DNA of 64,000 bases, taken from NCBI RefSeq assembly GCF_944387725.1, contig NZ_CALXGA010000002.1:2602-66601 (forward strand), given 5' to 3'. The first letter of the stretch is position 1; each line of letters begins with the position of its first letter. Position numbers and translations under genes: made by a program. The notes beneath the pieces are model-generated. The model was given only the letters and a program-made list of their open reading frames with translations. It had not been told where the DNA came from and did not search any database. Shown here one piece after another: positions 13,630 through 64,000 of this stretch. Origin of the DNA: an uncultured Intestinimonas sp. (GTDB taxonomy: Bacteria > Bacillota > Clostridia > Oscillospirales > Oscillospiraceae).

Positions 13630-13800
13630 GGCGGGGCGGGCCCCGGTTCTGGCGAGGAGGGGATCGGTCATAAAAATACAGGCTCCTTCCAGACATGGCC
13701 GGCGCTCCGGCCATGTCTCATGTAAAGTAGAAAACACCCGAAAGACACAATGCCTTCCAGGTGTTAATCACAATACATGGGGAAAGGTGCGCGATTGAAC

Positions 13801-13942
13801 ACATCTTCTTCCATCCAGACTTCGCGTCCACCGAAATGGAGGCGTCACTGTCGGTCCCGGAGTTCCACCGAGTCAGCCGCGCGGGAGCGCGGGTCGCGGA
13901 CTGTACCGCCGATCGGGATTTTCACCCTGCCCTGAAGACATC
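13801..13942 (-). ncRNA. FMN riboswitch (RFN element)
   Basis: Minus strand TCTTCAGGGCAGGGTGAAAATCCCGATCGGCGGT...AGTCCGCGA...GACCGACAGT...AAGTCTGGATGGAAGAAGA; terminator near 13731-13767; promoter TTGCAA/TATAAT at 13972-13999. Confidence 0.95.
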
Positions 13943-14021
13943 TCGCTGTTCAGTTGTTTTCTCTGTCTGTTATTATACACGACCGCGCAAAAATTGCAAG
14001 CCTTTTTGGCGGGAAATTTTC

Positions 14022-44966: not shown

Positions 44967-45137
44967 CCAAAAGGGCCTCAGCCGTGTCTCGATTATACCA
45001 CATCCTCCAGGAACCGCGCAAGGGTTCGGCTTCCCTCTCCCCTGCCAGTTCCCATCCGCCTGCTGTCGCATAAGATAGAACAGAGGGGAAGCCTGCCGGG
45101 CGGAACCCCTCGAAACCACCGAAGGAGGAACCTCACA

Positions 45138-45596
45138 TTGTATCCTGAAAACGGAACCAAGCCCACGCCCTGCGGCGATGCCTGCGGCACCCTGCCGGAG
45201 TGCGCCCCTCTGGCGGTCCCCTATGTACCCTTTCAGCAGAACAGCCCCAAACGTTATGAGCAGATGGATGCCCTGAGCAACGGCACCCTCTATCCCGGCC
45301 TGAACCTTCCCTTCCGGGCCAAGGTGGACGCCGCCGGCGTGCCCCAGACCCCGCTCACAGAGCTTCAGGCTCTGGAGTTCGTGGTCCAGGAGCTGGCCCT
45401 TTACCTAGATACCCACCCCTCCGACACGGAGGCATTTGAGCTCTTCCGACAGTACAGCGCCATGGAGAAGGAGGCCCGGGCGGCCTTTGTCTCCTCCAAC
45501 GGCCCTGTCCTCCGCAGTGAGACAGCCGACTGCAAGACCTACACCTGGCCCAAGGAGCCCTGGCCCTGGAACTACCCAGAAGGAGGGATGAAATAA
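45138..45596 (+). CDS. cotJB: Fused CotJA-CotJB spore coat protein
   Basis: TTG after AAGGAGG; CotJA motifs LAVPYVPFQ and ALSNGTLYPGL; CotJB motifs ELALYLDTHP and WPKEPWPW; CATAAGAT -10 at 45069. Confidence 0.85.
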   Translation: MYPENGTKPTPCGDACGTLPECAPLAVPYVPFQQNSPKRYEQMDALSNGTLYPGLNLPFRAKVDAAGVPQTPLTELQALEFVVQELALYLDTHPSDTEAFELFRQYSAMEKEARAAFVSSNGPVLRSETADCKTYTWPKEPWPWNYPEGGMK

Positions 45597-45597
45597 G

Positions 45598-45790
45598 ATG
45601 TTTTCTTATGAGAAAAAGCTGCAATATCCCGTCAAAATCAAGACGCCAAATCCCAAGCTGGCTTCCTTTATCATCAGCCAGTACGGTGGGCCGGACGGTG
45701 AACTGGGCGCTTCCCTGCGCTATCTGAGCCAGCGGTACGCCATGCCTTACCCGGAGCTCAAGGCGCTGCTCACCGACATCGGCACCGAGG
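45598..45790 (+). pseudogene. cotJC: cotJC 5' half (Mn-catalase family, ~64 codons), interrupted by an integrated element
   Basis: MFSYEKKLQYPV...QYGGPDGELGASLRYLSQRY...LLTDIGTE, then similarity stops before the expected E-x-x-H. Confidence 0.9.
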
Positions 45791-47372
45791 GGCTGTTCTG
45801 GGCCGGCTGCCCCAGCCGCTCCAGCACGAAGGTCCAGGTCCTGGGCAGCAGGTTCAGCTTCACCTCCACCCGCCGGTCCGGGTAGACCACCATGTGGTCC
45901 AGGATGGTTTTATAGAAGGTCTCGCTGGCCTGCTCCCCCTGGAGCAGGGCGGTCACCCTCCTCTTGATGCACCGTTCCAGCTCGCCCTTGTCGTAGGCCA
46001 CCTCCGCCCCGGCCTTCGCGGCGGACAGGCGCTCCTGGAGCTGAGCCATCTCCCGGTCATAGCGCTCCGTCATCTGCCGCATCTCTGCCTTGGTGATGTC
46101 CTGGGCGAAGAAGGCGTCCAGGGCGGTCTCCCGCTTTTTGGCCAGGCGATCCAGATCCAATTCCAGGGCCTTCTGGTTTTCACTGCCTCCCCCCTCCCCT
46201 GCCCGGATGGCCTCCAGGACGATGGCGGTCACGCTGCGGACCATCGCCTCACTGTCCAGCGGAAGGGATTGAAGGGACTGCCGCAGCAGCTCCATGGCCG
46301 TCTCGTCCCGGAGGGTCCGCCCCACATCGCAGCCCACCCGGTTGCCCTGGGGGTCCAGATGGGCCCTCCCCTCCCTGGTGGCGGTGTAGCAGCTCCAGCG
46401 CCGGCTGTAGCTGCCGTCCTTCCGCTTCTTCTTCCGGGACACGAAGCTGGCCCCGCACACCCCGCACTTGATCCTGCCGCTGAACACATAGCGGTTGGAG
46501 TGCCCCGCCCCCAGCTCGCCGTTTCGGTTTCGCTTTTTCAGCTCCGCCTGGACCGTATCCCACAACTCCCGGTCAATGATGGGCTCGTGGTGGTCCCGCA
46601 GGATAACCAGGTCCTCCTCTCCGTGGTTGTACTTTTTGGCATGAGAGAGGTAGTCCGGAGTGATGGTTTTCTTCTGGACCAGATCGCCGATGTACTTTTC
46701 ATTCTTCAGAATTTTAACGATGTGGGTGTTGCTCCACTTGACGTTGCCCCGGTGGGTGCGGTATCCGGCCTCCCGCAGCTCCCGGGCAATGACCGTAGTG
46801 CCCTTTTTCTCCACGCCGTACTTGTGAAAGATGAGCCTGACGATCTCCGCCCCTTTGGGCTCCACTGTCAGGCGTCCATCCTTTACATTATATCCCAGCA
46901 GGGACCTGCCGAAGACCACCCCCTGTTCCATCCGCCGGGTCTGGCCCCACTTCACCCGGCTGGAGGTCTTGCGGCTCTCCTCCTGGGCCAGGGAGCCCAT
47001 GATGGACAACCGAAGCTCGGCGTCCGGCTCCAGAGAGTGGATGCCGTCGTTGAGGAAGACCACCCCAACCCCGATGGCCTTGAGCTCCCGGGTGTAAGCG
47101 ATGGTGTCCAGGATGTTCCGGGAGAACCGGCTGACCTCCTTGGTTAGGATCAGGCGGAACTTTCCCCGCCGGGCGTCCTGAATCATCTGGTTGAAGGCGG
47201 CCCGCTTCTTGGTGGAGGTGCCGGTGATGCCCTCGTCCGCGTAGACCTGGTACAGCTCCCACTCCGGATGGCGGTCGATGTACTCCCGAAAGTACCGCTG
47301 CTGGTTCTCAAAGGAGTTGGCCTGATCCTCCTTGTCGGTGGAGACCCGGCAGTAGGACGCTACATAGATCAT
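45747..47372 (-). CDS. Large serine recombinase (resolvase, recombinase and zinc-ribbon domains)
   Basis: YCRVST catalytic Ser, YADEGITGT, SRFSRN, AQEESRKTS, NEKYIGD, HEPIID, CGVCG. Confidence 0.96.
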   Translation of the reverse strand: MIYVASYCRVSTDKEDQANSFENQQRYFREYIDRHPEWELYQVYADEGITGTSTKKRAAFNQMIQDARRGKFRLILTKEVSRFSRNILDTIAYTRELKAIGVGVVFLNDGIHSLEPDAELRLSIMGSLAQEESRKTSSRVKWGQTRRMEQGVVFGRSLLGYNVKDGRLTVEPKGAEIVRLIFHKYGVEKKGTTVIARELREAGYRTHRGNVKWSNTHIVKILKNEKYIGDLVQKKTITPDYLSHAKKYNHGEEDLVILRDHHEPIIDRELWDTVQAELKKRNRNGELGAGHSNRYVFSGRIKCGVCGASFVSRKKKRKDGSYSRRWSCYTATREGRAHLDPQGNRVGCDVGRTLRDETAMELLRQSLQSLPLDSEAMVRSVTAIVLEAIRAGEGGGSENQKALELDLDRLAKKRETALDAFFAQDITKAEMRQMTERYDREMAQLQERLSAAKAGAEVAYDKGELERCIKRRVTALLQGEQASETFYKTILDHMVVYPDRRVEVKLNLLPRTWTFVLERLGQPAQNSPSVPMSVSSALSSG

Positions 47373-47581
47373 GGTGTGTGTTTCCCCTCCCCTTCTGGTG
47401 TGAAATGGATTTTCCCTTTACAGATTTCTTCCGCATATCTGTATTGCACCTCACTGAGAATGCCCTCGTCTTTCAGCCCGAGCAGGATGGCCCGCTGGAG
47501 CATAGACCAGAACGCCGGGTCCGTCTCTTGTGTGATGAATTTCTCATCTGTGACGCCCAGCAGTCTGATCCGATCCCCCAT
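47369..47581 (-). CDS. Small hypothetical protein (70 aa) coupled to the recombinase
   Basis: ATGA stop/start overlap, purine-rich RBS; CATACCCT -10-like box at 47604-47611 (minus). Confidence 0.65.
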   Translation of the reverse strand: MGDRIRLLGVTDEKFITQETDPAFWSMLQRAILLGLKDEGILSEVQYRYAEEICKGKIHFTPEGEGKHTP

Positions 47582-47806
47582 CCCGCATGCCCCCTTTGGT
47601 TCCAGGGTATGCATGGGACAAGACCAGATTTCTTAGCGGATGTGCCCCCTTCCCTTTCAGCGCATCGTCGGATGTGAATTGGATTTGGATGCTGTCCTCA
47701 TGATGTGTGCCTCCTTCCATGCGGAGGGGAGCGCAGCGGTGGTTAAACGGAGCCTGCCGCACTCCCCCACGAGTCCATTGCCTTTTTTCATCTCCACGAG
47801 GCCGGG

Positions 47807-49135: not shown

Positions 49136-49552
49136 TCATTCGCTTCCGGCCTTATCGTCCGAAAGCTCACTCATTCTAGGGCGTCTCATCTCCCCACAAA
49201 AGCGGTTCACCGCTTTTGTGGGGGTTCCGTTTACCGCTTTTAACAACTGCCGGAGCTGTTCGCTGACCTGCCCGTAGCCATCCGCTAGCCTGTCACCGTA
49301 CACGACGGGGATCCTCCCCATGTTGGCCAGGGTGGTAAGCTGGTTCAGGTTCCGCCCCTGGCCTTTCAGGTCAGTGATCACTTTATCCAGGCCGTCCACC
49401 TGGACAATCTTTTTGCCCAGCCCACAGAAACACAGGTAGTCGGTGACCGTCATGTCCGCCTGCTTCGCCCGCGCCCGGATGGCCGCTTTGACCCGGGGTG
49501 TCACCAGGAGGGTGATGAGCTCCGTTTTCTTTGCTGCTCTCTGCATGCTCAC
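49136..49552 (-). CDS. mobC: MobC relaxosome accessory protein
   Basis: RHH-like N-terminus and GRNLNQLT motif directly upstream of the relaxase. Confidence 0.85.
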   Translation of the reverse strand: MSMQRAAKKTELITLLVTPRVKAAIRARAKQADMTVTDYLCFCGLGKKIVQVDGLDKVITDLKGQGRNLNQLTTLANMGRIPVVYGDRLADGYGQVSEQLRQLLKAVNGTPTKAVNRFCGEMRRPRMSELSDDKAGSE

Positions 49553-49813: not shown

Positions 49814-49977
49814 AGGGCTTGTTTGAAAAAAGTCAACATGCCCAATCAGCGGGTCTTTTGCCCCCTGGACGGCGCAATTTTTCCTTGAAATCCGCCAGGA
49901 TTCCTGCGAAAAAATTGCTTGCCAGCGGCCCAAAATCCCTCGCTGCTGGACACATCGCCAATTTTCAAACAAGCCCT
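49814..49977. mobile_element. MITE copy 2
   Basis: AGGGCTTGTTTGAAAA...TTTTCAAACAAGCCCT; nearly identical to 21585-21750. Confidence 0.88.
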
Positions 49978-49978
49978 A

Positions 49979-50367
49979 GTGATTGACGAGGTCGGGTACA
50001 TGCAGTTGAACCGCCAGGAGGCAGAATTGTTATTCCGGTTGGTTTCAGAGCGCTACGAGCACGGCAGTGTGATCCTCACCAGCAACAAATACTTCAGCGA
50101 CTGGGGCGAGCTGCTCAGCGATGATATCCTGGCCACTGCTCTCCTAGACCGGCTGCTCCACCACGCCCACGTGGTGAATATCCGGGGCCAGACCTACCGG
50201 CTGCGGGACCGCCTCAAGGCCGGCGTCTAACCGGTCCCACTGGCCGAAATTCCGGCGCACGGATAACTAGCAGGTAGGTTTCCGGCACCACAAGACCGGC
50301 GATGTGATTCCGGCGGTTGGGTCAGCTTCTTCCCGGCGATTCCGCTTTTTCTACTCCGGCGTTGACA
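49979..50367 (+). mobile_element. istB: IS21-family remnant: istB 3' end and right end
   Basis: VIDEVGY, LTSN, TALLDRLLHH; repeated TTCCGGC units ending in TTGACA. Confidence 0.82.
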
Positions 50368-51532: not shown

Positions 51533-52649
51533 TCAAAAAATGGGTTGATCCACACCAGAAAGGATGGAGACTCCGTACTGATAGGCATAGCAGGACCAAC
51601 GGATGGTGTCTGGTGCACGGGTCGTGTTAAAGAAATCCGAGACAGCGAAGAGCGGCCGCTCATCAACCAAGTTCTCCACATGAACCAGAATGTCTCCCCG
51701 TCCGGAATAGTGCTTGGCCACCAGGTTATTCAGCGTCTGGATATAGCCATCCGTACGGGTAATCTTCACGCAAATAAATCAGCAGGCGGGTCTCCGTATC
51801 GCCAAATCGCTGGCAGTAGGCACGGAATGCTTTCTCGTACACAGGGAAAGGATCGTCGAAGTCGGGGATAGACAGGTAGGTAGGGGACGTCTTCTCCAGA
51901 CGGACAGAGCCAGCGGGGCGGACGGAGCCCATGTGCGTCTCGATAAAGCGGTGGGACAGGCAACAAAAAGGAATCCCGCTGCCGCACCAGTTTCTCGTAA
52001 GGCCACTCCCACCAGGCGATGGCCTCTGCAGGGCCTGGATCTCTTCTGGGCTGAAGCGATATTTGATAACCTTGGCCGGGTTGCCGCCCACGATGGCATA
52101 GGCAGGCACGTCCTTTGCGACTACCGACCCGGCTACTACCACTGCGCCGTTGTGGATGGTTACACCACCCATGATGGTCGCTCCGTGCCCGATCCAAACA
52201 TCATTTTGGATCAGAATCTGCCCCTTTTCCCGCAATTTCGTGTGTACATTTAGACAGGGCTTCCAGAAACCAGCCATACCGCCGCTGGATGAAGCGGACC
52301 TCCTGGAGCCGCTGCCTCATGATGCCAGGCAGCTGATAGGCGCCGTTTACGATGTCCTCTGCGGGGAGGAGGGGAGGAAGGAGACTGCAGCGGTGGTCAC
52401 CGCCAGGTAGTCGTGATTTAAATTGACCAGGAAACAAAGTTCGTCGGCCATAGAACAGTAACGCCCGATCTGTATGCTGTGTACGCCCGCAGCGAAATCA
52501 AAATTGAGCCCGGTCTGAACCGTTGCGGAGACAATATAGCTATCCATATCCAGGCACAAGATGGGGAAATCCTGAAGAACCTTCCCCACCGTCAGCCGTG
52601 TGAACTGCTTCACTGTTTTGGGCTCCACGTGGATATTGTTTACAATCAT
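51533..52649 (-). pseudogene. CatB/Vat-like hexapeptide O-acetyltransferase, disrupted
   Basis: [44 protein letters not shown] across several frames, plus a ~120-bp insert. Confidence 0.8.
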
Positions 52650-53551
52650 GTCAACGCTCCTTTTGATCCTGACCATAGGCCGGCCAGGCCCTGCTCCAGA
52701 GAAATCCGGGGGCTCCAGCCCGGGACTGGCGGGTAAAGTCTAGGAGCATGGCGCATATCACGATCCGGGGCAGGGCGGGTGCCCCAATTTGTCTGCACCG
52801 TCAGACCACAGATTTTTACCATGGTTTCCACCGTTTTGCGCAGAGAGGGGATGGCATCCGGAAGCACTTGGAACTGCTGGTTTTCCCACTCCCCAGAGAC
52901 CAGTTGCTTCCCGGCCAGGATAAACGCCTCCGTCACATCGTCGATGTGGACGGCGGCATAGTCCTGCTGTCCATCGGACAGATCGATTGCTCTATGGCTG
53001 CGGGCGGCATCCAGAATAAGATTTAACACCTTAGACCGCCGGTCACCAGGACCGTAGGTGTCCGCCAGCACAAGCGTTCCTGCCCGGAGTAATCCTGTGT
53101 CAGTATAATATGCCAGCAGATCCCGGAATGCGCGCTTAGTTGCTGCGTAGAGATTGAGTGGACGGTACGCATCGCCTTGGCAATGTTCCATGATACTGGT
53201 GGCGCAGATCAGGTTTCTACACTCGCAGCTTGCCATCGCTTCCAGCAGATATGCGCCGTATGCGATATTGGATGCTACTAACTGGGTGGTGTTGTCCATA
53301 TCATGGGCGCCAGTATAGTAGGCCGCCAGATGATAGACCAGATCTGGCCGGCAGCGCTCCACCTGTGCTAAAACATTCATCCCCTCACCGTCGCAGGGCA
53401 GGAGCGTTATCTGATTCTGAATATCTTCGATATATGTGGTATGAAGAGGGTTTCGCACGAGACCAAAAACCTGGTGTTCACCCTGCGCCAGCAGACGGCG
53501 GGCCAGATGGCTGCCGATATACCCGGTCAGTCCGGTGATTAAAATATGCAT
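52646..53551 (-). CDS. NAD-dependent epimerase/4-reductase (CDP-deoxysugar synthase-like)
   Basis: TGLTGYIG, YAATK, DTYGPGD. Confidence 0.85.
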   Translation of the reverse strand: MHILITGLTGYIGSHLARRLLAQGEHQVFGLVRNPLHTTYIEDIQNQITLLPCDGEGMNVLAQVERCRPDLVYHLAAYYTGAHDMDNTTQLVASNIAYGAYLLEAMASCECRNLICATSIMEHCQGDAYRPLNLYAATKRAFRDLLAYYTDTGLLRAGTLVLADTYGPGDRRSKVLNLILDAARSHRAIDLSDGQQDYAAVHIDDVTEAFILAGKQLVSGEWENQQFQVLPDAIPSLRKTVETMVKICGLTVQTNWGTRPAPDRDMRHAPRLYPPVPGWSPRISLEQGLAGLWSGSKGALT

Positions 53552-53565
53552 AGTATCACCCTATA

Positions 53566-54132
53566 TTACAGGCCGCCAAAGTGGTCGCAGAACCAAGAAA
53601 AAGATGGCAGCGCTTGGTCCTTTTCCGATATGATCAATTCCTCAATCTGATCAATTGGCCAGGAGATTTTGAGTTCCGAATCATTCCATACAATACCTCC
53701 ATCCGAATCGGGATCATACTGGTCTCCACACAAGTAGTTGAACAATGTATCCGGCTCTAGGGCCAGAAAACCATGGGCGAATCCCTTTGGGATATAGAGC
53801 ATCTCCTGGTTCTCAGCGGATAGTGTAAATCCCCGCCATTGACCGAAAGTGGGCGAGCCCCGGCGCAGATCAACCGCTACATCGTACACTGCGCCATACA
53901 ATACTCTTACAAGCTTGTCCTGGCTATATTCCCTTTGGAAGTGCAGACCACGAATGACTCCCTTCCGAGACTGGGAGGTCAGATCCTCATAGGGAGTAAG
54001 TAAAATCCCCTGCTGACGGAATATACCTTGTTCAAAAGACTTCATCAGACAGCCGCGTTCATCTGGAACAACACGCGGTCGGATGGCCACAAGGCCAAAA
54101 AGATCAGTAGGCTGAAACGAAAACCGCTGCAT
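53566..54132 (-). CDS. rfbC: NDP-4-keto-6-deoxyhexose 3,5-epimerase (RmlC/RfbC family)
   Basis: DERG, RGLHFQ, DVAVDLR, GFAHGF. Confidence 0.92.
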   Translation of the reverse strand: MQRFSFQPTDLFGLVAIRPRVVPDERGCLMKSFEQGIFRQQGILLTPYEDLTSQSRKGVIRGLHFQREYSQDKLVRVLYGAVYDVAVDLRRGSPTFGQWRGFTLSAENQEMLYIPKGFAHGFLALEPDTLFNYLCGDQYDPDSDGGIVWNDSELKISWPIDQIEELIISEKDQALPSFSWFCDHFGGL

Positions 54133-54153
54133 CCCCCACCATCCTATCGTTTT

Positions 54154-54906
54154 TTATTTGATACGCTTCAACCATCCACCAGGGCAGGAGGTTAGAACAC
54201 TTTTCTGTTCAAAAGAGTCATCTACTATAAAATCGTCGCAGTTCTTCAAAAAAGCTTGCACAGCAGTATATGGATTGTTTCCTTTGCCCCATGGACGGTC
54301 GCTGTAGGTATGATCTGCAAATTCAATTCCAGTATCGTATACTACAACATAAGAATTTTGGGACACCAGAGGTGCATAGAGCTTTAATTCTTCCAGTACA
54401 TGGGCATGGGTGTGGCATGAATCAAGCAACACCATAACTGTCTGATGGCGCTCCGCAATCTGGCAAACCTGCTCAGCAATGCCAGCGTCAATCGAAGAAC
54501 CCTCAAGCATGGTAATCCGCTTATGCATGGGGTGAACTTCGATAGCGGCCCGATTGTGCGTGCGGATGTCAATGTCAATCCCCACCACTTCCCGCTTGAT
54601 ATTTTGCGCCCCATCAAATGTATCAAGCAGCTCCAGCATGGAGGCAGAAAAAATGAGGCTGCCGCCATGGGCGATCCCGGTCTCAATGATTAAATCAGGC
54701 CGAACACTCATAATCACCTCCTGCAAGCTGATCATATCCTGCGGGATCTGAATGATGGGACGCCCCATCCAAGTAAAATAGTAGCCATATTTATAGCGCG
54801 ACACATGATCCTGGAACTGCTTGGCCAAGCGCTTGGTATCCGGATCCTGCGTCATAGCATGGATATCTTCTTCCTTTTCCTGCTGGAACTGCGCTACTGC
54901 GTCCAT
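54154..54906 (-). CDS. CmcI (cephalosporin hydroxylase-family) methyltransferase-fold protein
   Basis: WMGRPIIQIPQD, IETGIAHGGSL, LDSCHTHAHV. Confidence 0.9.
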   Translation of the reverse strand: MDAVAQFQQEKEEDIHAMTQDPDTKRLAKQFQDHVSRYKYGYYFTWMGRPIIQIPQDMISLQEVIMSVRPDLIIETGIAHGGSLIFSASMLELLDTFDGAQNIKREVVGIDIDIRTHNRAAIEVHPMHKRITMLEGSSIDAGIAEQVCQIAERHQTVMVLLDSCHTHAHVLEELKLYAPLVSQNSYVVVYDTGIEFADHTYSDRPWGKGNNPYTAVQAFLKNCDDFIVDDSFEQKSVLTSCPGGWLKRIK

Positions 54907-55369
54907 TTTAATCACCATGCCGACCGTTACACGGTCTGCACAAATAGGGATGAAAGAGTGCAGACAAACGATCGCCTTTCTTATAAAATTGAGATGAGGG
55001 GGAAGCACACTACAGCGCTCGGGGAGGTAAGTCGTAGATTGCTTCCAGAGTTCAAACCAGTATTTTAATCAGTGTCAGAACCGCCTTTTCAAGCACAAAT
55101 AAGTGGCGCTTCGAGCCCGGAAACTAAGGATTGTATTAACGCCTGTTAATTGCTTGGCGGTTCAGTCACTGCTTCCTCCTCTCCACATTGAAATGAGGAG
55201 GGTGTAGATTGAAAGTCGTATTTACTACGCTTTGAAATATGAGCACATTGCCAAACGCCGGCGAAAGAAAAGAGCCATATGCTCTCCACTGGGGGAATCT
55301 GGAACCCTGGGGATCTGTTCAAGGTCGATATGCCTGATCACCCTGCCCAGAAGATTTCCTTTAATCCCA

Positions 55370-56446
55370 TTAAATAGGATCTTTAAGGGCAAAATATTTC
55401 CGGATCTCTTCCGTCATTTCCTCCAAAATTGTTTTGCTCTCCAGCCAGACGTGTGTCCAACGAACGGTCTCCTGAATGGCCTGATCGATATGCCATTGAG
55501 GTGTCCAGCCAAGACGGGAAACAATTTTTGAGCAGTCTAACTTGAGAAAATTCGCCTCATGAGGGCCACCCGCATGCTCAGGTGCGTGCCAGCCAGCGCC
55601 CTTTCCCCAGGCATGGCAGAACAGCTCCACCAACTTCCCCGTTGTCACACAGTCCACAGCATCTGGCCCTACATTATAGCATCCAGAGACAGAGGGATCT
55701 GTAAATTGCTCTCTGGCCACCAGTAAATACGCCGAAAGCGGCTCCAGCACATGCTGGTACGGGCGGATCGAACCTGGATTACGTACCTCAATTCGCTGAT
55801 GGTTTAATACACCGCGAATACAGTCTGGAATGATACGATCCGCCGCAAAATCCCCGCCACCGATCACATTACCCGCCCGCAGGGTCGATACCGCGACTTC
55901 ACTGTTTCTCAAAAAGCTTCGGAAATAGCTGTGTGTCACCAACTCCGAGCACGATTTGGAGTTGGAGTAGGGGTCGTAGCCATCCAGCCGGTCAGTTTCT
56001 CGATAGGGCCAATCCCATTCCTGATTATCATAGACTTTATCTGTGGTCACATTCACAAGGCTCCGGACCGAATCTGTTTTCCTGACACACTCCAGAACAT
56101 GCACCGTTCCCATCACATTGGTGGCGTAAGTGGCAACCGGGTCACGGTAGCTCTCTCGCACAATTGGCTGGGCCGCCAAGTGAAAAACGATCTCCGGCTG
56201 GACGTGGTGAAAGACTTTTTTCAATGTCTCTAGATCTCGAATATCCGCAATCGTAGAGGAGAGAGCGCCATCCAGCCCAGCAATCCGATAAAGGCTTGGT
56301 TGTGTCGGCGGCTCCAACCCATAGCCGTACACTTCCGCACCCCAATCGAGGAGAAGCTTGCAGAGCCAGGCACCCTTGAAGCCGGTATGGCCCGTAATCA
56401 GAATTTTCCTGCCCCGATAAAAGGACTGCATTGGCTCCATGGGCAT
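55370..56446 (-). CDS. rfbG: CDP-glucose 4,6-dehydratase
   Basis: TGHTGFKG, HLAAQP, TTDKVY, YSNSK, RAGNVIGGGD. Confidence 0.95.
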   Translation of the reverse strand: MPMEPMQSFYRGRKILITGHTGFKGAWLCKLLLDWGAEVYGYGLEPPTQPSLYRIAGLDGALSSTIADIRDLETLKKVFHHVQPEIVFHLAAQPIVRESYRDPVATYATNVMGTVHVLECVRKTDSVRSLVNVTTDKVYDNQEWDWPYRETDRLDGYDPYSNSKSCSELVTHSYFRSFLRNSEVAVSTLRAGNVIGGGDFAADRIIPDCIRGVLNHQRIEVRNPGSIRPYQHVLEPLSAYLLVAREQFTDPSVSGCYNVGPDAVDCVTTGKLVELFCHAWGKGAGWHAPEHAGGPHEANFLKLDCSKIVSRLGWTPQWHIDQAIQETVRWTHVWLESKTILEEMTEEIRKYFALKDPI

Positions 56447-56460
56447 CCTGCCTTTCCAGA

Positions 56461-57549
56461 TTATAAAAATGCGTATAGTACAGTCTCCGTGTCAATATTG
56501 GAATAATGCCGAAGGGCAAATTGATATTCTGGCACCAGTGATTTGAGATATTGCATCAGAACAATCACATCACCGGGTCTGTGGTATGCCGAGATGGCAC
56601 AGAGAGGCTTGTCCCGCCGGATAGTCTTGGCGGCCCCGCGCAGCGCAGGCAACTCAGATCCCTCAATATCCATCTTGATAAAGGATACTGTGGTATTGCC
56701 CACTATTTCGTCCAGCGTGACCAGTGAGATCTCCACATCCCCACCTTGGGCAATCAAGCTGCTGGAGGTTCCCCTGCTGTCAAAGGAGGCAGTTCCATTG
56801 TGATCGTATAGTCCAGCCTGATAGAACGAGATGTTCGGGAGGCCGTGTTTCTGTGCGGCCAGTTTACATCTCTCCAGGTTTTCAGCATCTGGCTCAAAGG
56901 CGAAAATCTTTGAATACTGTCCACCGCACCAGTGCGCAAAGCGAAGCGAAGTATCACAGTTAAAGCATCCGGCGTCTACAAACGCACCGCCCTTTGGATA
57001 TTTTTCAGGAAAATCAAAGTATTGATGCTCAAAATCTTCTTCTCGATACCCACATATAATTAACTGCTCGGCAGAAAAGCCTCGACTCATTAAAAATTGA
57101 TGAATTTCTTTTGAGTGATCGACTGGAGTAATCAAAATACAGTAATCAGTAAAATTGTTTGCACTCTCCGGTGGCGGCATCACAGGAAGTCCCATGCAAG
57201 AGGTCATTGTTTCATAATTTTGGTCAAAGAAACCGGTTAAGTTTGCAGAAATACTACGCAAATACTCTGCCCATTTTTTCCCGTATCTCCCCGCACCATA
57301 AATCGCAATGGGCTTTTTTGTTTTGGCGGCATCCTGTAAGATATTGAGCTTCAAATAGCCGCTTTTAGATTGTCTGCAAACCTCTATCATGTCATCTACA
57401 TATTGAGGATGAAAAAGGAGGTCCGTTTTTACGCGAGCGTCAAAGATTATTTTCGAAATCTCGTCATAAAGCGCCCCATAGCAGTCTTTTAGGTCCTGAA
57501 ACCAGGCATAACCGTCCCACCAATTGGGTCGTTCAGAAGGTAGACACAT
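56461..57549 (-). CDS. FkbM-family methyltransferase with an N-terminal Rossmann-like domain
   Basis: IYGAG, FVDAG, AFEPD, IKMDIEG, ETVLYA. Confidence 0.88.
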   Translation of the reverse strand: MCLPSERPNWWDGYAWFQDLKDCYGALYDEISKIIFDARVKTDLLFHPQYVDDMIEVCRQSKSGYLKLNILQDAAKTKKPIAIYGAGRYGKKWAEYLRSISANLTGFFDQNYETMTSCMGLPVMPPPESANNFTDYCILITPVDHSKEIHQFLMSRGFSAEQLIICGYREEDFEHQYFDFPEKYPKGGAFVDAGCFNCDTSLRFAHWCGGQYSKIFAFEPDAENLERCKLAAQKHGLPNISFYQAGLYDHNGTASFDSRGTSSSLIAQGGDVEISLVTLDEIVGNTTVSFIKMDIEGSELPALRGAAKTIRRDKPLCAISAYHRPGDVIVLMQYLKSLVPEYQFALRHYSNIDTETVLYAFL

Positions 57550-57578
57550 ATCTTTCTCCTTTGTTTATTACAGGCTAA

Positions 57579-59387
57579 TCACAGATCCAAGTTTGGGTCG
57601 AGGAAATCCCCAAGATAGAGGATTCTCTTCACTGAAGGATATTTTTCCGCAACTGTGCGGCAAATTGATCCAGCCGAAACGCTCGTAAACGTTATAATAA
57701 CGATCTCTATATTTTCACGCATAATAATGTCAGGAGCCTCTATGACCTTCCTATGTAATTGTAGCCCCTGCTTTTTGACTGCGGAATCAACCAGAAAGAA
57801 GTCTGCTTTCCATACGTCCGAAATTGTCTGATAGAGCGCTTCGACTGGGCTGATCATTCCCCACAAAGCTGTCTTATAGCCGCGTAGTTTTTGAAAATTT
57901 TTCAAATAAAGTTCTTTGTCAATATACTCTGGCAGATAGGCGTCCACAATTTTTTGGCAGTGCTCACATACCATTGGCGTAATGGGGCGGAATATCTCGC
58001 GCTCTTTCCATACTGCCATGTGCCCGCAGTGTGGACAACGTCCCTGGACATCGGCCAAACCTGCGCCGCAATACCGCAAATGTCCTTCCGGAATGCTATC
58101 TATGCCCCTTTTAACGGCGGTGCTAATGTCCAGCATCATTGTCCGATACTCCTGATCGGTCATTTTTGTCACATTTATCTGTGGACAGCCCTGACGAATA
58201 TACTCCACCTCATCGGTGATGATACCCCGCCGGCAGGCGTTTTGATAGAGGATGGAGCCAGGATAGACGGAGATATAGCCAAGTTTAATATTGTATTCCG
58301 GGTGCGCCTTCCACCAATTCAGGGTATTGTGATAGGTTTCTACTGTTTCCGCTTCATCGCCGAAGATAAAGTTACCCTGCGCAGTCAGATTGGCCTTTCT
58401 ACACATTTGCAGTGCAGAGTCAATCTGTTCAACGGTAATGTGCTTATTCATACTTTTCAGGATGGTATTATCCGCGCTTTCCAGGCCAAAACCTGCGTAC
58501 CGGCAGCCACTTTCCTTGAGCCGGTTAATCATCTCCTGATTGACCATATCGACACGAAGGGAAATCATATAGGTCAAATTGCGCTCCTTCATAGCGTCGC
58601 AAAATGTATCGAACTCCGTCTGCCGCAGGGCAAACAGCTCATCTGAAATGTAGAGGGATTGAATGTGATAGGTCTCAATCAGGTAATCCACCTCATTCAG
58701 GATGTTGCTGAGAGACCGCTTGCGGTACTTTGTCCCGCTGGGATGGAAGCAAAAGGTACAGTTGAACGGGCAGGAACGGCTGAAGGACACCACGCCGCTG
58801 TGTTCCGCGTTCAGTTCAAAGTTTGCCTTGTCCAGAAGCTGGTCATATTCAAAGCCTTCATAGTCGGGAAACGGAAGCGCATCCAGGTCCTCAATTTCCT
58901 TTCGGGGACGAGTTATGACCCACTTCTCTGCTTCGCCGTCCCGATAAATGAGACCATCTACCGAGGCAAGCTCACGCTTACCCTCCATGGCCTCTGCAAG
59001 TTCACAGATGGTGATTTCACCCTCACCAATCATACCATAATCGGCGTATTCCAACGCTTCCATGGCTGGAACCGGGCTTGCGGTGATGATGCCGCCGCCC
59101 ACCCAGGTGATGATGTCAGGTTTCATCTGTTTGGCGGTTTCAAAGATCTCCCGAAGCTCCGAATACTGCGTGGTTAAGCCACCAGACGCAATCACATCCA
59201 CATCATGCTCCCGGATCAAGCGCTCCAGCAGTTCCCGCACAGTTCCCTTTTTATAATTCAGGTTGTAAGTAATTACATGCCGTTCTGTGGCCTTTAACGC
59301 CGCTGAAACATAAGCCATTCCAACCGGGAAGGCGTAGCTTGCGTCATCGTCCCGAGTCAGCCTCGGCATCACAATACAGTAGTTCAT
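57579..59387 (-). CDS. B12-binding radical SAM protein
   Basis: N-terminal cobalamin-type domain (GGG...GEGE), CPFNCTFC, GLES. Confidence 0.9.
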   Translation of the reverse strand: MNYCIVMPRLTRDDDASYAFPVGMAYVSAALKATERHVITYNLNYKKGTVRELLERLIREHDVDVIASGGLTTQYSELREIFETAKQMKPDIITWVGGGIITASPVPAMEALEYADYGMIGEGEITICELAEAMEGKRELASVDGLIYRDGEAEKWVITRPRKEIEDLDALPFPDYEGFEYDQLLDKANFELNAEHSGVVSFSRSCPFNCTFCFHPSGTKYRKRSLSNILNEVDYLIETYHIQSLYISDELFALRQTEFDTFCDAMKERNLTYMISLRVDMVNQEMINRLKESGCRYAGFGLESADNTILKSMNKHITVEQIDSALQMCRKANLTAQGNFIFGDEAETVETYHNTLNWWKAHPEYNIKLGYISVYPGSILYQNACRRGIITDEVEYIRQGCPQINVTKMTDQEYRTMMLDISTAVKRGIDSIPEGHLRYCGAGLADVQGRCPHCGHMAVWKEREIFRPITPMVCEHCQKIVDAYLPEYIDKELYLKNFQKLRGYKTALWGMISPVEALYQTISDVWKADFFLVDSAVKKQGLQLHRKVIEAPDIIMRENIEIVIITFTSVSAGSICRTVAEKYPSVKRILYLGDFLDPNLDL

Positions 59388-59422
59388 TCCCTTTTCCCTC
59401 CGGAATTCATCCTGTCAAGTGG

Positions 59423-60403
59423 TCATTGAAATTTGGACTTGAGCTGCTGTACATAGGGATCCAAATAGTCCCCATCTTGCAGCCCAAACGCAGGCACACT
59501 GCACTGTCCACAGACCGGAATCCCCTGGACGCCGTCCAGTTGCTGTTTCAGGAACTCTTTCCGCGTACCGCTGTTCCAAATGTCCAGCAGAGAAGCATCC
59601 TGCACACTCCCCCAAAAACATGGCACATCGGTGGAACAGCAGGGGCAGACTTGTCCGTCTGGATATACAACAAGCATATAAAAGGGCATAGCACAGATGG
59701 TGGAATGCCGAAGATTCCCCTGCTTGCATCGCCCGGACAGCGAATTTAAATTGGAATAATCAATTTCTTTCACAAATGGGATCGCGTACTCAATCGCGGT
59801 AATATCCGCGATGGGAGAGAAAATCCGCCGGAATTTCTTCTCCCCATCCTCGCCGTCCAGTGCACAGTCGATAATTTTGATGCAGACCTCAGTATCCCGT
59901 TTATGGTGGTAAAAATAGCCTAGATTCTCCACTAGCTTTTCAAAATCCACCGTCACACCACAGGTTTTTTCATATTGGCCGGCATCAGTGCCCTGGATGG
60001 AGACGCGAAGCCGCTTGAGCCCGGCTGCAATGAGGGCGTCAGAGAGTTCCGGTGTCAGCAACGAGCCGTTTGTCACAATCTCTGTTCGCTCTGCGGCATT
60101 TTTTTGCTCGGCATAGGCCACCATATCGGCAATTCTCGGATGGATCAGCGGTTCCCCGTGGCCAGCAAAAATGAGAGCCTTCAATTTGTGCACGAATTGC
60201 AGAGCGTCATCGATTGCCTTTTGGTACACAGAAAAGTCCATCATTTGGCGATGGAACTGCTTTTCCGCCAGGGCTTCCTCTGATAAACTGTACAGGCAGT
60301 AATTACACCGAAAGTTGCAATAAAACGCTGGGAATATATGCAGGGAAAAGGGCCCGCTCAGGGGGATTTGCTCACCTAACTCTAGTCGCTTATTATAAAT
60401 CAT
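59423..60403 (-). CDS. Radical SAM protein with SPASM/Twitch domain
   Basis: CNFRCNYC, GEPLIH, C-terminal CAMPF...CPCC...CGQC. Confidence 0.9.
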   Translation of the reverse strand: MIYNKRLELGEQIPLSGPFSLHIFPAFYCNFRCNYCLYSLSEEALAEKQFHRQMMDFSVYQKAIDDALQFVHKLKALIFAGHGEPLIHPRIADMVAYAEQKNAAERTEIVTNGSLLTPELSDALIAAGLKRLRVSIQGTDAGQYEKTCGVTVDFEKLVENLGYFYHHKRDTEVCIKIIDCALDGEDGEKKFRRIFSPIADITAIEYAIPFVKEIDYSNLNSLSGRCKQGNLRHSTICAMPFYMLVVYPDGQVCPCCSTDVPCFWGSVQDASLLDIWNSGTRKEFLKQQLDGVQGIPVCGQCSVPAFGLQDGDYLDPYVQQLKSKFQ

Positions 60404-61536
60404 GTGCCTTTCCTCCCTGAACTGTCGGCTGTGGCATATAAGACGGTTTCCATTGTGCATGCGTTATAGCATCTCAGATAAAACGTATATCCTAAGTCCC
60501 AACCATGCAAAAGCAAAGGGATGTCCCATAAATGGTTTATATGATGGTAGACACAGACTGCCAAGTCGGGGGTGTACTGAGTAATCATCTCCTTGGCCGC
60601 CATAAGCGCCCGCAATTCCGTCCCCTCTATGTCCATTTTAATCAGATCAACGGAGTGGTTTTTCAGCGCATCGTCCAGAGCAATGCAAGTGACCACCTCC
60701 CCCCCGGTCTGAGTAATCCGGCCAGACCCAGTCCCAGTCTGGAAGGATACCGGTCCGGTAAATCCTCCAACACCGCATGGAAAGAGGGTGATTGCCCCCA
60801 GTTTTTCCCTGTTTTCCCGGCAAAAGCTGGCGAGACGCGCGAAATTACTCTGATTTGGCTCAAATCCAGTATACTGGGCCAGCGGCCCTTCCAGCTGTAA
60901 AAACTGCTGGGCCGTATCTCCAATATAGGCGCCGCAATCTATCACATGGGTATGTCTCTTCCAGGGAATATCCTCCGGAAAGTACTGCCTTCCCAAGGGA
61001 TCTTCCAGTGTGCAGCCTGAATAGTCTCTGGCCATATGAGCCTCTAAATTATTCCAGAATATCTGTCTGCTCTTCGGCTCATGGAATCGTGTGGCTGCGC
61101 TTTGAATTCTACGCCAGCGGACAGCGTAATATTCCTGCAAAGACTCGTTTGTTGACCGGTCATCCGGCTCCACCATCAGGCAGCGCAGGGACTGCGCCTC
61201 TCTGATATGCTGGAAACCTGTTTTATGAATGACTTCCATAGCATGAACCCGTTCGGTACAGTCCATCACAATGGAAAACAGCACCAGCGGCGTAATATCT
61301 TTGATAGCTTGCGGCACATTTTGCAGATTCCAAACAGGTAGGCCAAATAATGCCGCTCCATCTTCCGCGTTGGCGTCCAAAAAGCCCATGACCGGATGTC
61401 CTTCCTGACTGAGCAGCGTGAAAAGTTCCTGCCCAAAGGCGCCGGCGCCATAGATCAGAAGCCGATCCGGAAGCTGTTGTATGGCCTGGGAAATGGTTTG
61501 GGATGAAATACGGTCTTTCATCTGTTCCCAATTCAT
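60400..61536 (-). CDS. FkbM-family methyltransferase
   Basis: IYGAG, IDCGAYIGD, GFEPN, IKMDIEG. Confidence 0.88.
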   Translation of the reverse strand: MNWEQMKDRISSQTISQAIQQLPDRLLIYGAGAFGQELFTLLSQEGHPVMGFLDANAEDGAALFGLPVWNLQNVPQAIKDITPLVLFSIVMDCTERVHAMEVIHKTGFQHIREAQSLRCLMVEPDDRSTNESLQEYYAVRWRRIQSAATRFHEPKSRQIFWNNLEAHMARDYSGCTLEDPLGRQYFPEDIPWKRHTHVIDCGAYIGDTAQQFLQLEGPLAQYTGFEPNQSNFARLASFCRENREKLGAITLFPCGVGGFTGPVSFQTGTGSGRITQTGGEVVTCIALDDALKNHSVDLIKMDIEGTELRALMAAKEMITQYTPDLAVCVYHHINHLWDIPLLLHGWDLGYTFYLRCYNACTMETVLYATADSSGRKGT

Positions 61537-61539
61537 CGG

Positions 61540-62856
61540 TTATCCCTCATTGTTCATTCTGTTAATGACTGCGTTCCATTGGGAGAGGACGGGATCATTC
61601 GGAAAGGTCCGGCTGAAATGGGGAACCGAACCTTTGCTGGGCTCCCGAAAGACGGGCATTTCATTCATAAGCTTTTGAAAGGGCTCCCAGTGGCCGTCTT
61701 TGGCTTTCATAAATGCCAGCGCCATATCCGGGCGGACGGAATTCAAAAACCACTGCCATGGTTCGCAGTTTGCATAATTTGGCCAAATCAGACGTTTTTT
61801 TGCCTGATCTGCGGCACAATATATGCCGTTCAAAAAATTTTTTATATTGTCACCAATATTGCGCCGACTGATAACAGACTTTCGGGCCTCCCACCCTAAA
61901 TGGAAGCGCAAATCTGGATCTTCCGCTAACATACACACCCATTCCGCGAAATCTTTAGTATTTTCTGCAAGGATTCCATTCTCCTGATGTGTCACGATTG
62001 TCCGTTCAGTAGACTGGTTCAACAATACCACAGGCAGTTCCATGGCCATGGCCTCTAAAATAGAATTTTCTGTGGTTGCGAAATGGGTCTTATTGAGAGG
62101 ATACATAAAAATATCCAAGGAATTCAGCAGTTCAGGCACATCCTCCACATATCCAGTAAATATAAATGCGTCAAAAATGCCCATCGCCCTGGCTGAATCG
62201 GCAATCCATTGATACTCCCTTGGATCACCTGCCAAAACAAACTGGATGTGTGGACATGCCCCCAGAATCCACGCACAAATGCGTACAAATTGCGGATGAA
62301 TTTTGCTCTTGACGAAGCTGCCCACATAACCTACACGAATGGGCGCGGCAGGGTCCCTTTTCTTTCGGACTGGTATAAACTTGGAGAGATCCCCCAACCC
62401 GAACACCACATCTGTTTTTTCTAAAAGCAGTTTCTGCCGCTGCTCCGTTGTCCACTCTTCTACATCAGAACTGCACGGCGAGGTGAGAAATACCCGGCTG
62501 GCTGGTTCCAGCAGCAATGGTGAGAGCCAAGGGTAGTACAGGCCATTGACATGGTTCCAAAGGATACATCTCGTTGGGATTGGAGGAAAATGTGCCAGCA
62601 GTTCCGCCATCGCTGGATGTCCCCACCAGTGCAGAATACACACATCAGCCTCGCCCACTGCTTGTGCAAGCTGGTCTGGACCCGGCTGGCAGATCACCTG
62701 TGTGCCTCCCTCCATACACTGCCGGACGAAGTGATCGCGTTCTGGACGCTGGAGACAAAGAACTCTGTGTCGGTTTTCGGTCTCATTCACCACCAAACCA
62801 CTGATGGTACGGCCAATCCCCCCGCCCATGTGCGCTGTAATATGTAGGAGTTTCAT
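61540..62856 (-). CDS. Glycosyltransferase family 4
   Basis: HMGGGIG, FTGYVED, ENSILEAMA. Confidence 0.85.
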   Translation of the reverse strand: MKLLHITAHMGGGIGRTISGLVVNETENRHRVLCLQRPERDHFVRQCMEGGTQVICQPGPDQLAQAVGEADVCILHWWGHPAMAELLAHFPPIPTRCILWNHVNGLYYPWLSPLLLEPASRVFLTSPCSSDVEEWTTEQRQKLLLEKTDVVFGLGDLSKFIPVRKKRDPAAPIRVGYVGSFVKSKIHPQFVRICAWILGACPHIQFVLAGDPREYQWIADSARAMGIFDAFIFTGYVEDVPELLNSLDIFMYPLNKTHFATTENSILEAMAMELPVVLLNQSTERTIVTHQENGILAENTKDFAEWVCMLAEDPDLRFHLGWEARKSVISRRNIGDNIKNFLNGIYCAADQAKKRLIWPNYANCEPWQWFLNSVRPDMALAFMKAKDGHWEPFQKLMNEMPVFREPSKGSVPHFSRTFPNDPVLSQWNAVINRMNNEG

Positions 62857-62872
62857 ATAACTTCCTCTATAC

Positions 62873-64000
62873 TTAATTCCCGGTTTTCTGGACACCCATG
62901 ACATAGGTATCCACTAAAAGCAATGGCAGGGCATTCCGGTCAGGCAGCGTGGAAAGGAGATATTCCTGCGAGGCCCCGTCTATATTGTGCATACGAGACT
63001 TAGTAAACAGGATTTTTCCAAAGGTATATACTGTCTTCTGCAAGATGTCGATTGGAATGTTGTACGCAAACTGGGGATTATAGTACCTATGATCGCCCCG
63101 GCAAAATAGATATTCCCGGAAACTGAATGTATTGAGCAGAGTGAACAACAGAATGCCATCCGGTTTCAGCAGACGGACAGCTTCATCCAAAATAAACTGT
63201 GGTTCATGGAAGCGGTTCAGCGGCTTATCCACCACCACATAGTCAAAATATCCCGTCGGATACTGCCGGCCAAAAAACTCTTCCCGGTCACAAGCCACAA
63301 CCCCGTCGCAGACGGTGTTTAGATCCGCCTGATATTTCGATTCCTCTGTAAAGGCAGACAGTTCCGTATTGCGAAACCCCATGGACCGCAGGCGATTTTT
63401 TACATCTAAGATTGGAGTGCCACAGCGGGTGTCTACCCCTAAAATCCGCTTCTGGCCATCTCCTCCAGTTGGGGGGAGATCATCCAGGACGTCGATCCAA
63501 AAGTTATTTACATCGTCCCAGGCGTCCACCCCTTGGTATTTCTCCATAAAATTGTTCCGCCCAATGGACAGTGACTGGCGAAACTGCTCTGGATCTTTGC
63601 CCTCCCCATGGCTGAGATCATGATTGTGATGTATCCAAGTGTCGCCGGCCAGCATAGCCTTGTACCCGGCCCGCCGAACACGGAAAGCGATATCATCATC
63701 TGCAAAGTCGTGGAAGAATCCCACATCGGCCAGCGGCAATCCAACAGCCATCAAGCACTCCATACGGTAAACAGTCGCTGGTGTTACTAGTCGAAGACGC
63801 TCCTGCCATTTCGAGGTGTCTGGACGATTAAAGACCGCCGCCTGCTGCTGCATCTCTTCCAAATTCGAAAAGGGCAGATTTATCTGCTGAAAGTTACTGA
63901 CATTGGAAGATACCGGGCACACCATACCAATTCGTTTGTCCTCTTCCATACCGCGGATAAGGTTGGAGAGCCATCCAGAAGTTACAATAATATCGTTTCC
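62873..64000 (-). CDS. Glycosyltransferase family 2 with a C-terminal methyltransferase-like domain (5' end outside the window)
   Basis: NDIIVTSGWL, DDDIAFRVRRAGY, IHH; C-terminal FDYVVV...LKPDG. Confidence 0.8.
   Translation of the reverse strand, partial: GNDIIVTSGWLSNLIRGMEEDKRIGMVCPVSSNVSNFQQINLPFSNLEEMQQQAAVFNRPDTSKWQERLRLVTPATVYRMECLMAVGLPLADVGFFHDFADDDIAFRVRRAGYKAMLAGDTWIHHNHDLSHGEGKDPEQFRQSLSIGRNNFMEKYQGVDAWDDVNNFWIDVLDDLPPTGGDGQKRILGVDTRCGTPILDVKNRLRSMGFRNTELSAFTEESKYQADLNTVCDGVVACDREEFFGRQYPTGYFDYVVVDKPLNRFHEPQFILDEAVRLLKPDGILLFTLLNTFSFREYLFCRGDHRYYNPQFAYNIPIDILQKTVYTFGKILFTKSRMHNIDGASQEYLLSTLPDRNALPLLLVDTYVMGVQKTGN

Follow-up and report, generated by a model that had tools for sequence, protein, structure and literature searches.

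A serine-recombinase island inside the coat gene cotJC of a gut Intestinimonas, candidate for programmed excision at sporulation

Skin, SPbeta, vfbin, vrin and gin are the well-known elements intervening in sporulation genes (PMC5025042, PMC4191935, PMC5595907). We describe here a candidate of this kind, hereafter element 1. The window, i.e. the whole stretch of 64,000 nucleotides that was analysed, corresponds to C2:2602-66601 of G000, the genome of an uncultured Intestinimonas of the chicken gut (2.18 Mb, 116 contigs, 84.7% complete); positions without prefix are those of the window, and C numbers designate contigs of this genome. A preliminary description of the window had proposed that its cotJC gene is split by a serine-recombinase element that excises at sporulation. 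The split is confirmed, three in-frame pieces of the gene having been found, and the programmed-excision interpretation is supported.

The locus resembles skin(Cd) of Clostridioides difficile (CD1231 and CD1234), for which the accessible text of PMC5025042 describes a large serine recombinase at the element edge within a mother-cell gene, a small helper gene under control of the sigmaE plus SpoIIID type, and a precise excision restoring the frame; the same features appear here, the control being read from motifs and the excision being one that would restore the frame. The differences concern the target, sigK for skin(Cd) and the coat catalase gene cotJC for element 1; the helper and the recombinase, which here appear to share one promoter, the helper family having no known match; and the derivation of element 1 from a relaxase/MobC island with 30 kb of cargo. 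Gin, in gerE of Bacillus cereus ATCC10987 (GirC and GirX; accessible text of PMC5595907), is likewise a non-prophage element lodged in a late mother-cell gene, with a serine integrase and a directionality factor—here a candidate. It differs by its target, host class and helper, whereas element 1 belongs to a broad, horizontally moving family inserted at one codon, and shares cotJC with a second, unrelated element. SPbeta, in spsM of Bacillus subtilis (SprA/SprB; accessible text of PMC4191935), is still mobile, excises in the mother cell and rebuilds a spore-surface gene; but SPbeta is a phage, whereas element 1 is an island of the mobilisable type. The preliminary description had rightly judged so: besides the relaxase/MobC-type genes, no phage gene, be it for head, tail or packaging, was found by Pfam among 37 scanned ORFs of the element.

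The same description spoke of an analogous switch at a different target; cotJC is not a new one. A cotJC-intervening element is named in Laceyella sacchari (bioRxiv 10.1101/2022.02.25.481979), and bioRxiv 10.1101/2021.11.22.469490 cites Abe et al. 2013 for a list of targets that includes cotJC; in the accessible text, both are brief mentions of the same target gene and the same kind of element, with no site, helper or regulation. The main texts of Durrant et al. (PMC10083194), of PMC12904643 and of bioRxiv 10.64898/2026.07.08.737213 mention neither cotJ nor catalase; their supplements might list cotJC. The kind of element and its target are therefore already known; for the clade inserted at codon Gly62, its helper family and the twice-split cotJC, we found no description in the openly accessible main texts searched.

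The pieces of cotJC and the crossover site

The host operon begins with cotJA and cotJB fused into a single ORF of 152 aa (45138..45596, plus strand; PF11007 and PF12652). The preliminary description, to which cotJA-B looked undecayed, is corrected in that they form a single ORF; the fusion is also present in genus relatives. CotJC starts at 45598 and, in the window, matches the Mn-catalase model PF05067 at positions 1-67 only. Its first piece, codons 1-62 up to the crossover, covers 45598..45782 (plus strand). No 3' half lies in the window, as had been noticed; the following part, codons 62-178, is found farther along the same contig, 32.85 kb on and outside the window (C2:81233-81577, plus strand), and a second break interrupts it at codon 178. 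Contig C29 carries the remaining 21 codons, preceded by the end of a second recombinase (piece 3, codons 175-199, C29:23615-23535, minus strand, also outside the window). The three pieces join into one 199-aa frame without stop, which agrees at 183 of its 199 residues with an intact cotJC from the same genus, so that the split-gene reading is not a matter of chance. The search for a 3' half, advised in the preliminary description, thus ends with one that exists, in frame and undecayed, while no second cotJC, intact or otherwise, was found in the contigs of this 84.7% complete genome.

Element 1, 32,849 bp in length, lies within the coding frame of this mother-cell gene. Its attL covers 45763..45800, with the crossover dinucleotide GG at 45781-45782 (Gly62), and the GG of attR is at C2:81231-81232, outside the window; recombination of these sites would restore the cotJC frame exactly. 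The break first described at the E-E-x-x-H motif is confirmed, but the crossover takes place two codons before this motif: the T-E codons after Gly62, which had carried the border to 64 codons, are element sequence mimicking cotJC. The core then proposed at 45787-45795 is off by about 6 bases, and both this core and a 7-bp shared run were rejected, since the family shares GG alone and the symmetry is centred there. Indeed, among the 26 loci for which both ends are available, all joints read in frame, only GG is common to both ends in four, and the symmetry of the arms is maximal at GG (8.5 of 14, against at most 4.7 for 11 shifted centres). The att arms of G000 are less symmetrical than those of most loci (6 of 18, for a median of 11); its element arms fit the family profile, with ranks of 42 of 73 and 6 of 35.

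The split gene bears marks of selection. No stop was found in 37 split 3' pieces, nor in 98 segments covering codons 33-62 (split and intact together), and pN/pS was similar for split and intact cotJC (0.20 vs 0.21 and 0.08 vs 0.12, respectively). In pairs whose cotJC had diverged about as much as their recombinases, the 3' pieces, which lack a promoter, accumulated 24/1, 30/0 and 27/0 synonymous/non-synonymous changes in three cases, and 7/4 in a fourth. Such purifying selection on pieces devoid of promoter would agree with an expression through excision. As the element jumps, it may also date from a phase in which the gene was intact, by independent re-insertion into intact genes.

The recombinase, its candidate helper and their promoter

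The large serine recombinase noticed at the break is complete: 541 aa (45747..47372, minus strand), with Resolvase, Recombinase and Zn-ribbon domains, the motif YCRVS and cysteines at 303, 306, 328 and 348. Element 1 thus carries its own integrase, intact and at its edge. The last codons of the protein read across attL, a feature not conserved in the family; a control by tail swap (541 aa integrated, 581 aa circular) was considered and rejected, as the protein ends ahead of att in 15 of 23 relatives and the remaining tails have nothing in common.

Upstream lies a gene for a conserved small protein of 70 aa (47369..47581, minus strand), predicted to be a recombination directionality factor. In 69 of 79 loci, drawn from the best 80 of at least 599 matched stretches, a homologue directly precedes the recombinase gene. 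The protein matched no Pfam or NCBIfam family, and its best named hit in the ESM Atlas, SHOCT-like at 0.81, is below the reliable range. Folded together with residues 285-520 of the recombinase, it gave a complex score of 0.81, against 0.00 for the best of three controls; this mark is reached by 116 of 157 solved pairs and by 2 of 215 mismatched pairs, although the score may be partly due to the likeness to recombinase-directionality-factor complexes already solved. The folding runs share at least 91% of contacts, with a pLDDT of at least 84 for the partner. The predicted interface involves residues 355-392, 469-490 and 506-520 of the recombinase, i.e. the base of the coiled coil and the last strand. 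This is the DBD2/coiled-coil junction, to which the accessible text of PMC12286644 assigns the binding of verified directionality factors. The 70-aa protein is thus predicted, on this model, to bind the recombinase as its directionality factor.

The small gene and the recombinase are preceded by a sigmaE-like promoter motif (47604..47632, minus strand; -10 at 47611-47604, -35 at 47632-47628), within which a SpoIIID-like core is found at 47616-47621 on the plus strand. With patterns set after the sequences had been seen and among kin that are not independent, the two-box motif is present in 39 of 44 upstream regions (63 of the 69 loci had enough DNA, dereplicated to 44), for a shuffle mean of 4.1 and a maximum of 10, and in one on the opposite strand. 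A similar pattern, widened to admit the atypical -35 of element 1, retains 11 of the 6193 candidate gene starts of G000, including spoIIP, spoIIIAA and sipL, which the accessible text of PMC3789822 gives as sigmaE-dependent, spoIIP jointly with sigmaF. The -35 box of element 1 departs from the TCATA/GCATA of the host sigmaE targets in the same genome.

The host cotJ operon appears to be of another class. Its -10 box (45069..45076, plus strand) is assigned to a sigmaK-like promoter from the motif CATAnnnT, present in 66 of 69 cotJA upstream regions, and from the base counts at position -18, where 49 of 66 host cotJA promoters have C and 36 of 43 element promoters have A. This matches the -35 box of C. 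difficile, ATA for sigmaE and AC for sigmaK (PMC3789822, accessible text), and would place the element promoters in the sigmaE class and those of cotJ in the sigmaK class. A sigmaE-controlled cotJ operon, which the preliminary description gave as known in B. subtilis, is not supported in these organisms: the sigmaE-type -35 pattern is found in 13 of 69 cotJA upstream regions, for a shuffle mean of 10.1. The cotJ promoter thus looks sigmaK-type in these organisms, and cotJ-type operons are sigmaK-dependent in C. difficile, in the accessible text of the same source. As for SpoIIID, a shorter core is enriched in the element promoters (23 of 43, vs 2.6) and found in 6 of 62 cotJA promoters (vs 3.9), whereas a stricter consensus shows no enrichment (4 of 43 element promoters, vs 1.2). 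The genome holds the mother-cell apparatus, with spo0A, sigE, spoIIID and spoIVA. From these motifs we infer that the small gene and the recombinase are under a mother-cell promoter of the sigmaE type.

Cargo, relatives and a second element

Next to this module lies a relaxase pseudogene with two stops and a frameshift (PF03432; 47807..49114, minus strand), followed by a gene for a MobC/NikA-like mobilisation protein (49136..49552, minus strand). The relaxase is intact, 394-428 aa, in relatives including G010 of the same genus; in element 1 it is dead while the excision module is intact. With no intact relaxase found in it, element 1 reads as derived from an integrative mobilisable element and no longer one by its own means. 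The segment 49814..50738 (plus strand) contains a copy of a 166-bp host repeat together with IS21/IS1595 remnants. This repeat, MITE- or REP-like with its inverted ends (49814-49979 in the window, C2:24187-24351, C2:76603-76767), has 150 copies on 65 contigs of the genome, and none in the related loci searched. As element 1 contains two such copies besides its dead relaxase, its sequence points to a long residence in the lineage.

Its cargo comprises some 15 genes for glycan biosynthesis, with a lower GC content (51726..64000, minus strand, continuing beyond the window): hexapeptide acetyltransferase pieces, epimerases, CmcI and FkbM methyltransferases, radical SAM enzymes and glycosyltransferases. 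Beyond the window come a flagellin (C2:72146-72970, or L004:9545-10369, minus strand) next to a GT2 glycosyltransferase, both 77-80% identical in DNA to a host pair on C33, then a small resolvase, ApbE and RnfC/D/G-like genes (C2:74484-79630, or L004:11883-17029, plus strand). The latter stretch also holds a lipoprotein-like ORF with an internal repeat, and lacks rnfE/A/B among the ORFs scanned; a second rnfD of the genome is on C22. The host has fliG and two more flagellins of its own. A hairpin-like motif is common to the upstream regions of all three flagellins (that of the element and those at C33:20696 and C10:42405), in none of which did a sigmaD-like box pattern match. No Rfam family was matched in element 1; elsewhere in the window, an FMN riboswitch lies at 13799-13943 (minus strand).

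The family was defined on the best 80 of at least 599 matched stretches: 76 of these 80 closest recombinases adjoin a cotJC piece broken at the Gly62 site, and of the four misses two end less than 50 bases from the recombinase. The named hosts, among the matches listed, include Oscillospiraceae, Lachnospiraceae, Acutalibacter and Pelotomaculum, as well as Agathobaculum ammoniilyticum and a Dysosmobacter sp. The elements range from 3 to 33 kb, and their cargo, for the 57 of 124 ORFs scanned, is unrelated: genes for type I-C CRISPR-Cas, for type I restriction and for [FeFe] hydrogenase, transporters and a further flagellin. One in the genus relative G007 has a type I-C CRISPR-Cas gene set (L035:9905-17402), and another an 884-aa flagellin (L122:679-3333) whose flagellinolysin-like middle domain is below the family cut-off. 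Of 25 pairs with close recombinases, 19 have host cotJC genes diverged to saturation, the recombinase pS being 0.01 in one pair. On these comparisons the family jumps horizontally between hosts, and vertical descent of a host-domesticated family is ruled out as a general rule.

The survey of relatives suggested by the preliminary description bore fruit: among 60 sampled, 46 have a cotJC match, which is split in 14. Four sites are used, codons about 30, 62, 135 and 177, and an intact extra copy exists in 3 of the 14. Two elements at different fixed codons of cotJC were seen at L036, L039, L077, L089, L090, L093, L097, L105 and L110. The sporulation gene-intervening arrangement is common in gut Clostridia.

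The second break of cotJC in G000 is due to element 2, unrelated to element 1. Its ends carry an 11-bp core over codons 175-178 (C2:81567-81577 and C29:23615-23605), flanked by a perfect 11-bp inverted repeat; the assembled parts are C2:81567-82074 and C29:23605-23737, and beyond 22 codons the body of its recombinase is absent from the assembly. Over 498 bases, the left end matches the corresponding one in Ca. Merdivicinus (L111) at 98.6% identity. The right end is common to 52 metagenome loci, of which 38 are in cotJC at the same codon, 13 elsewhere and one too short; the family is near-identical across human and chicken gut Clostridia. A sigmaE-like motif precedes a small ORF ahead of the recombinase in all 34 loci with the common recombinase type and enough DNA, whereas a second recombinase type in the family (L148) is without it.

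SigK is also split in this genome, at least twice and by elements other than element 1, which itself is not in sigK and hence is not skin proper. The 5' part is at C47:1961-2160 and the middle part on C13 (C13:35847-37630), behind a recombinase and before a second break, while a search of the assembly yielded no third and last piece. The recombinase on C13 is accompanied by a small ORF upstream and by a near-match to the motif of sigmaE type. Three further large serine recombinases are at C39:551-2155, C61:11248-12966 and C101:3056-4513.

Populations were approached through metagenomes. At least 0.8 of the region is held by 14 chicken-gut or gut runs, and a share of at most 0.15 by RNA runs. 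In contigs from 7 runs of 4 studies, one run being a possible source of the genome, attL and attR are each bridged in 4 of 4 runs. Among the loose ends listed in these contigs there is neither an empty site nor a circle of element 1, but contigs drop rare forms, so that these data neither show nor exclude excision. One loose end at attR differs in sequence from cotJC of G000 and was read as the intact gene of another species. In run X14, piece 2 continues straight into piece 3 (30 of 30 letters), so that element 2 is missing from that strain; run X13 also departs from the reference at this site, while X5 and X7 extend 25 letters into element 2.

Proposed mechanism and alternatives

Altogether, we consider it quite probable that the 32.8-kb island at Gly62 of cotJC is precisely excised in the sporulating mother cell, rebuilding the gene. 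SigmaE, probably with SpoIIID, would activate the 70-aa gene together with the recombinase that follows; the small protein would bind the recombinase at the base of the coiled coil and direct the attL x attR excision at GG. Element 2 would exit likewise by its own enzyme, sigmaK would then transcribe the rebuilt cotJA/B-cotJC operon, and the spore chromosome would retain both elements, their cargo being inherited.

A more trivial view is that of a plain site-specific island at a conserved codon of a dispensable gene, cotJC being knocked out and excision rare and independent of sporulation. The horizontal jumps between hosts would suit it, as would the lack of excision product in the contigs of 7 runs, the 13 of 52 loci in which the element 2 family is outside cotJC, and the dispensability of the cotJC homologues for coat formation in C. 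difficile, whose mutants have mild phenotypes (accessible text of PMC11222575). We nevertheless hold it for improbable, because a mother-cell-type promoter is kept before the small gene across families, the 37 split 3' pieces and the 98 segments of codons 33-62 are stop-free, change in the co-diverged pairs is synonymous only, and cotJC has not decayed despite the long residence told by the dead relaxase and the two copies of the 150-copy repeat. An assembly or binning artefact joining pieces from different strains is hardly credible: certainly the assembly is fragmented, with piece 3 on another contig and element 2 mostly unassembled, but pieces 1 and 2 are on one contig, independent contigs bridge both junctions, and X14 directly joins piece 2 to piece 3 by 30 of 30 letters.

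Excision during sporulation being granted, its beneficiary can be discussed. A timing switch domesticated by the host, in which excision would delay cotJC or remove the flagellin and glycan genes from the mother cell to the benefit of the host, is compatible with the main mechanism, from which it differs only in the beneficiary. The skin of C. difficile is such a timing device (PMC4191935, accessible text), the relaxase of element 1 is lost, and the element is in all 7 runs from 4 studies. We find this view unlikely, however: most relatives keep an intact cotJC (14 of 46 split), cargo varies freely among elements of 3 to 33 kb, and if cotJ waits for sigmaK, an excision timed by sigmaE adds no delay. 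Given this mobility of the family and the unsplit gene of most relatives, we favour a harmless lodging of the element over a switch that would have evolved to serve the host. Excision in the mother cell would be, in origin, a mobile-element strategy that makes insertion harmless; in this lineage the element has lost its own transfer gene and persists as a skin-like resident.

Tentatively, and with slightly more doubt than belief, this could be extended to a broad class of sporulation-cloaked islands hosted by gut Clostridia: at least two unrelated recombinase families, each with a small helper under a sigmaE-type promoter, would land in a late coat gene read by sigmaK, so that cargo of any sort, be it the flagellin glycosylation genes of element 1 or the CRISPR-Cas, restriction, hydrogenase or transporter genes of others, would ride free of cost. 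The mother cell of G000 would then have to go through a chain of four programmed excisions, with sigK and cotJC each requiring two, to finish a spore.

The conserved set of recombinase, helper and att sites is an integrase system ready to be tested, the helper of which belongs to no known family. A flagellin travels on the island with its glycosylation genes, and this surface trait may be relevant to host immunity and to phages. If the proposed mechanism is true, programmed DNA excision in sporulation would be an ordinary event among gut Clostridia instead of an oddity found in a handful of model strains; cotJC and sigK “pseudogenes” of this kind would probably be functional, which bears on the calling of gut bacteria as spore-formers.
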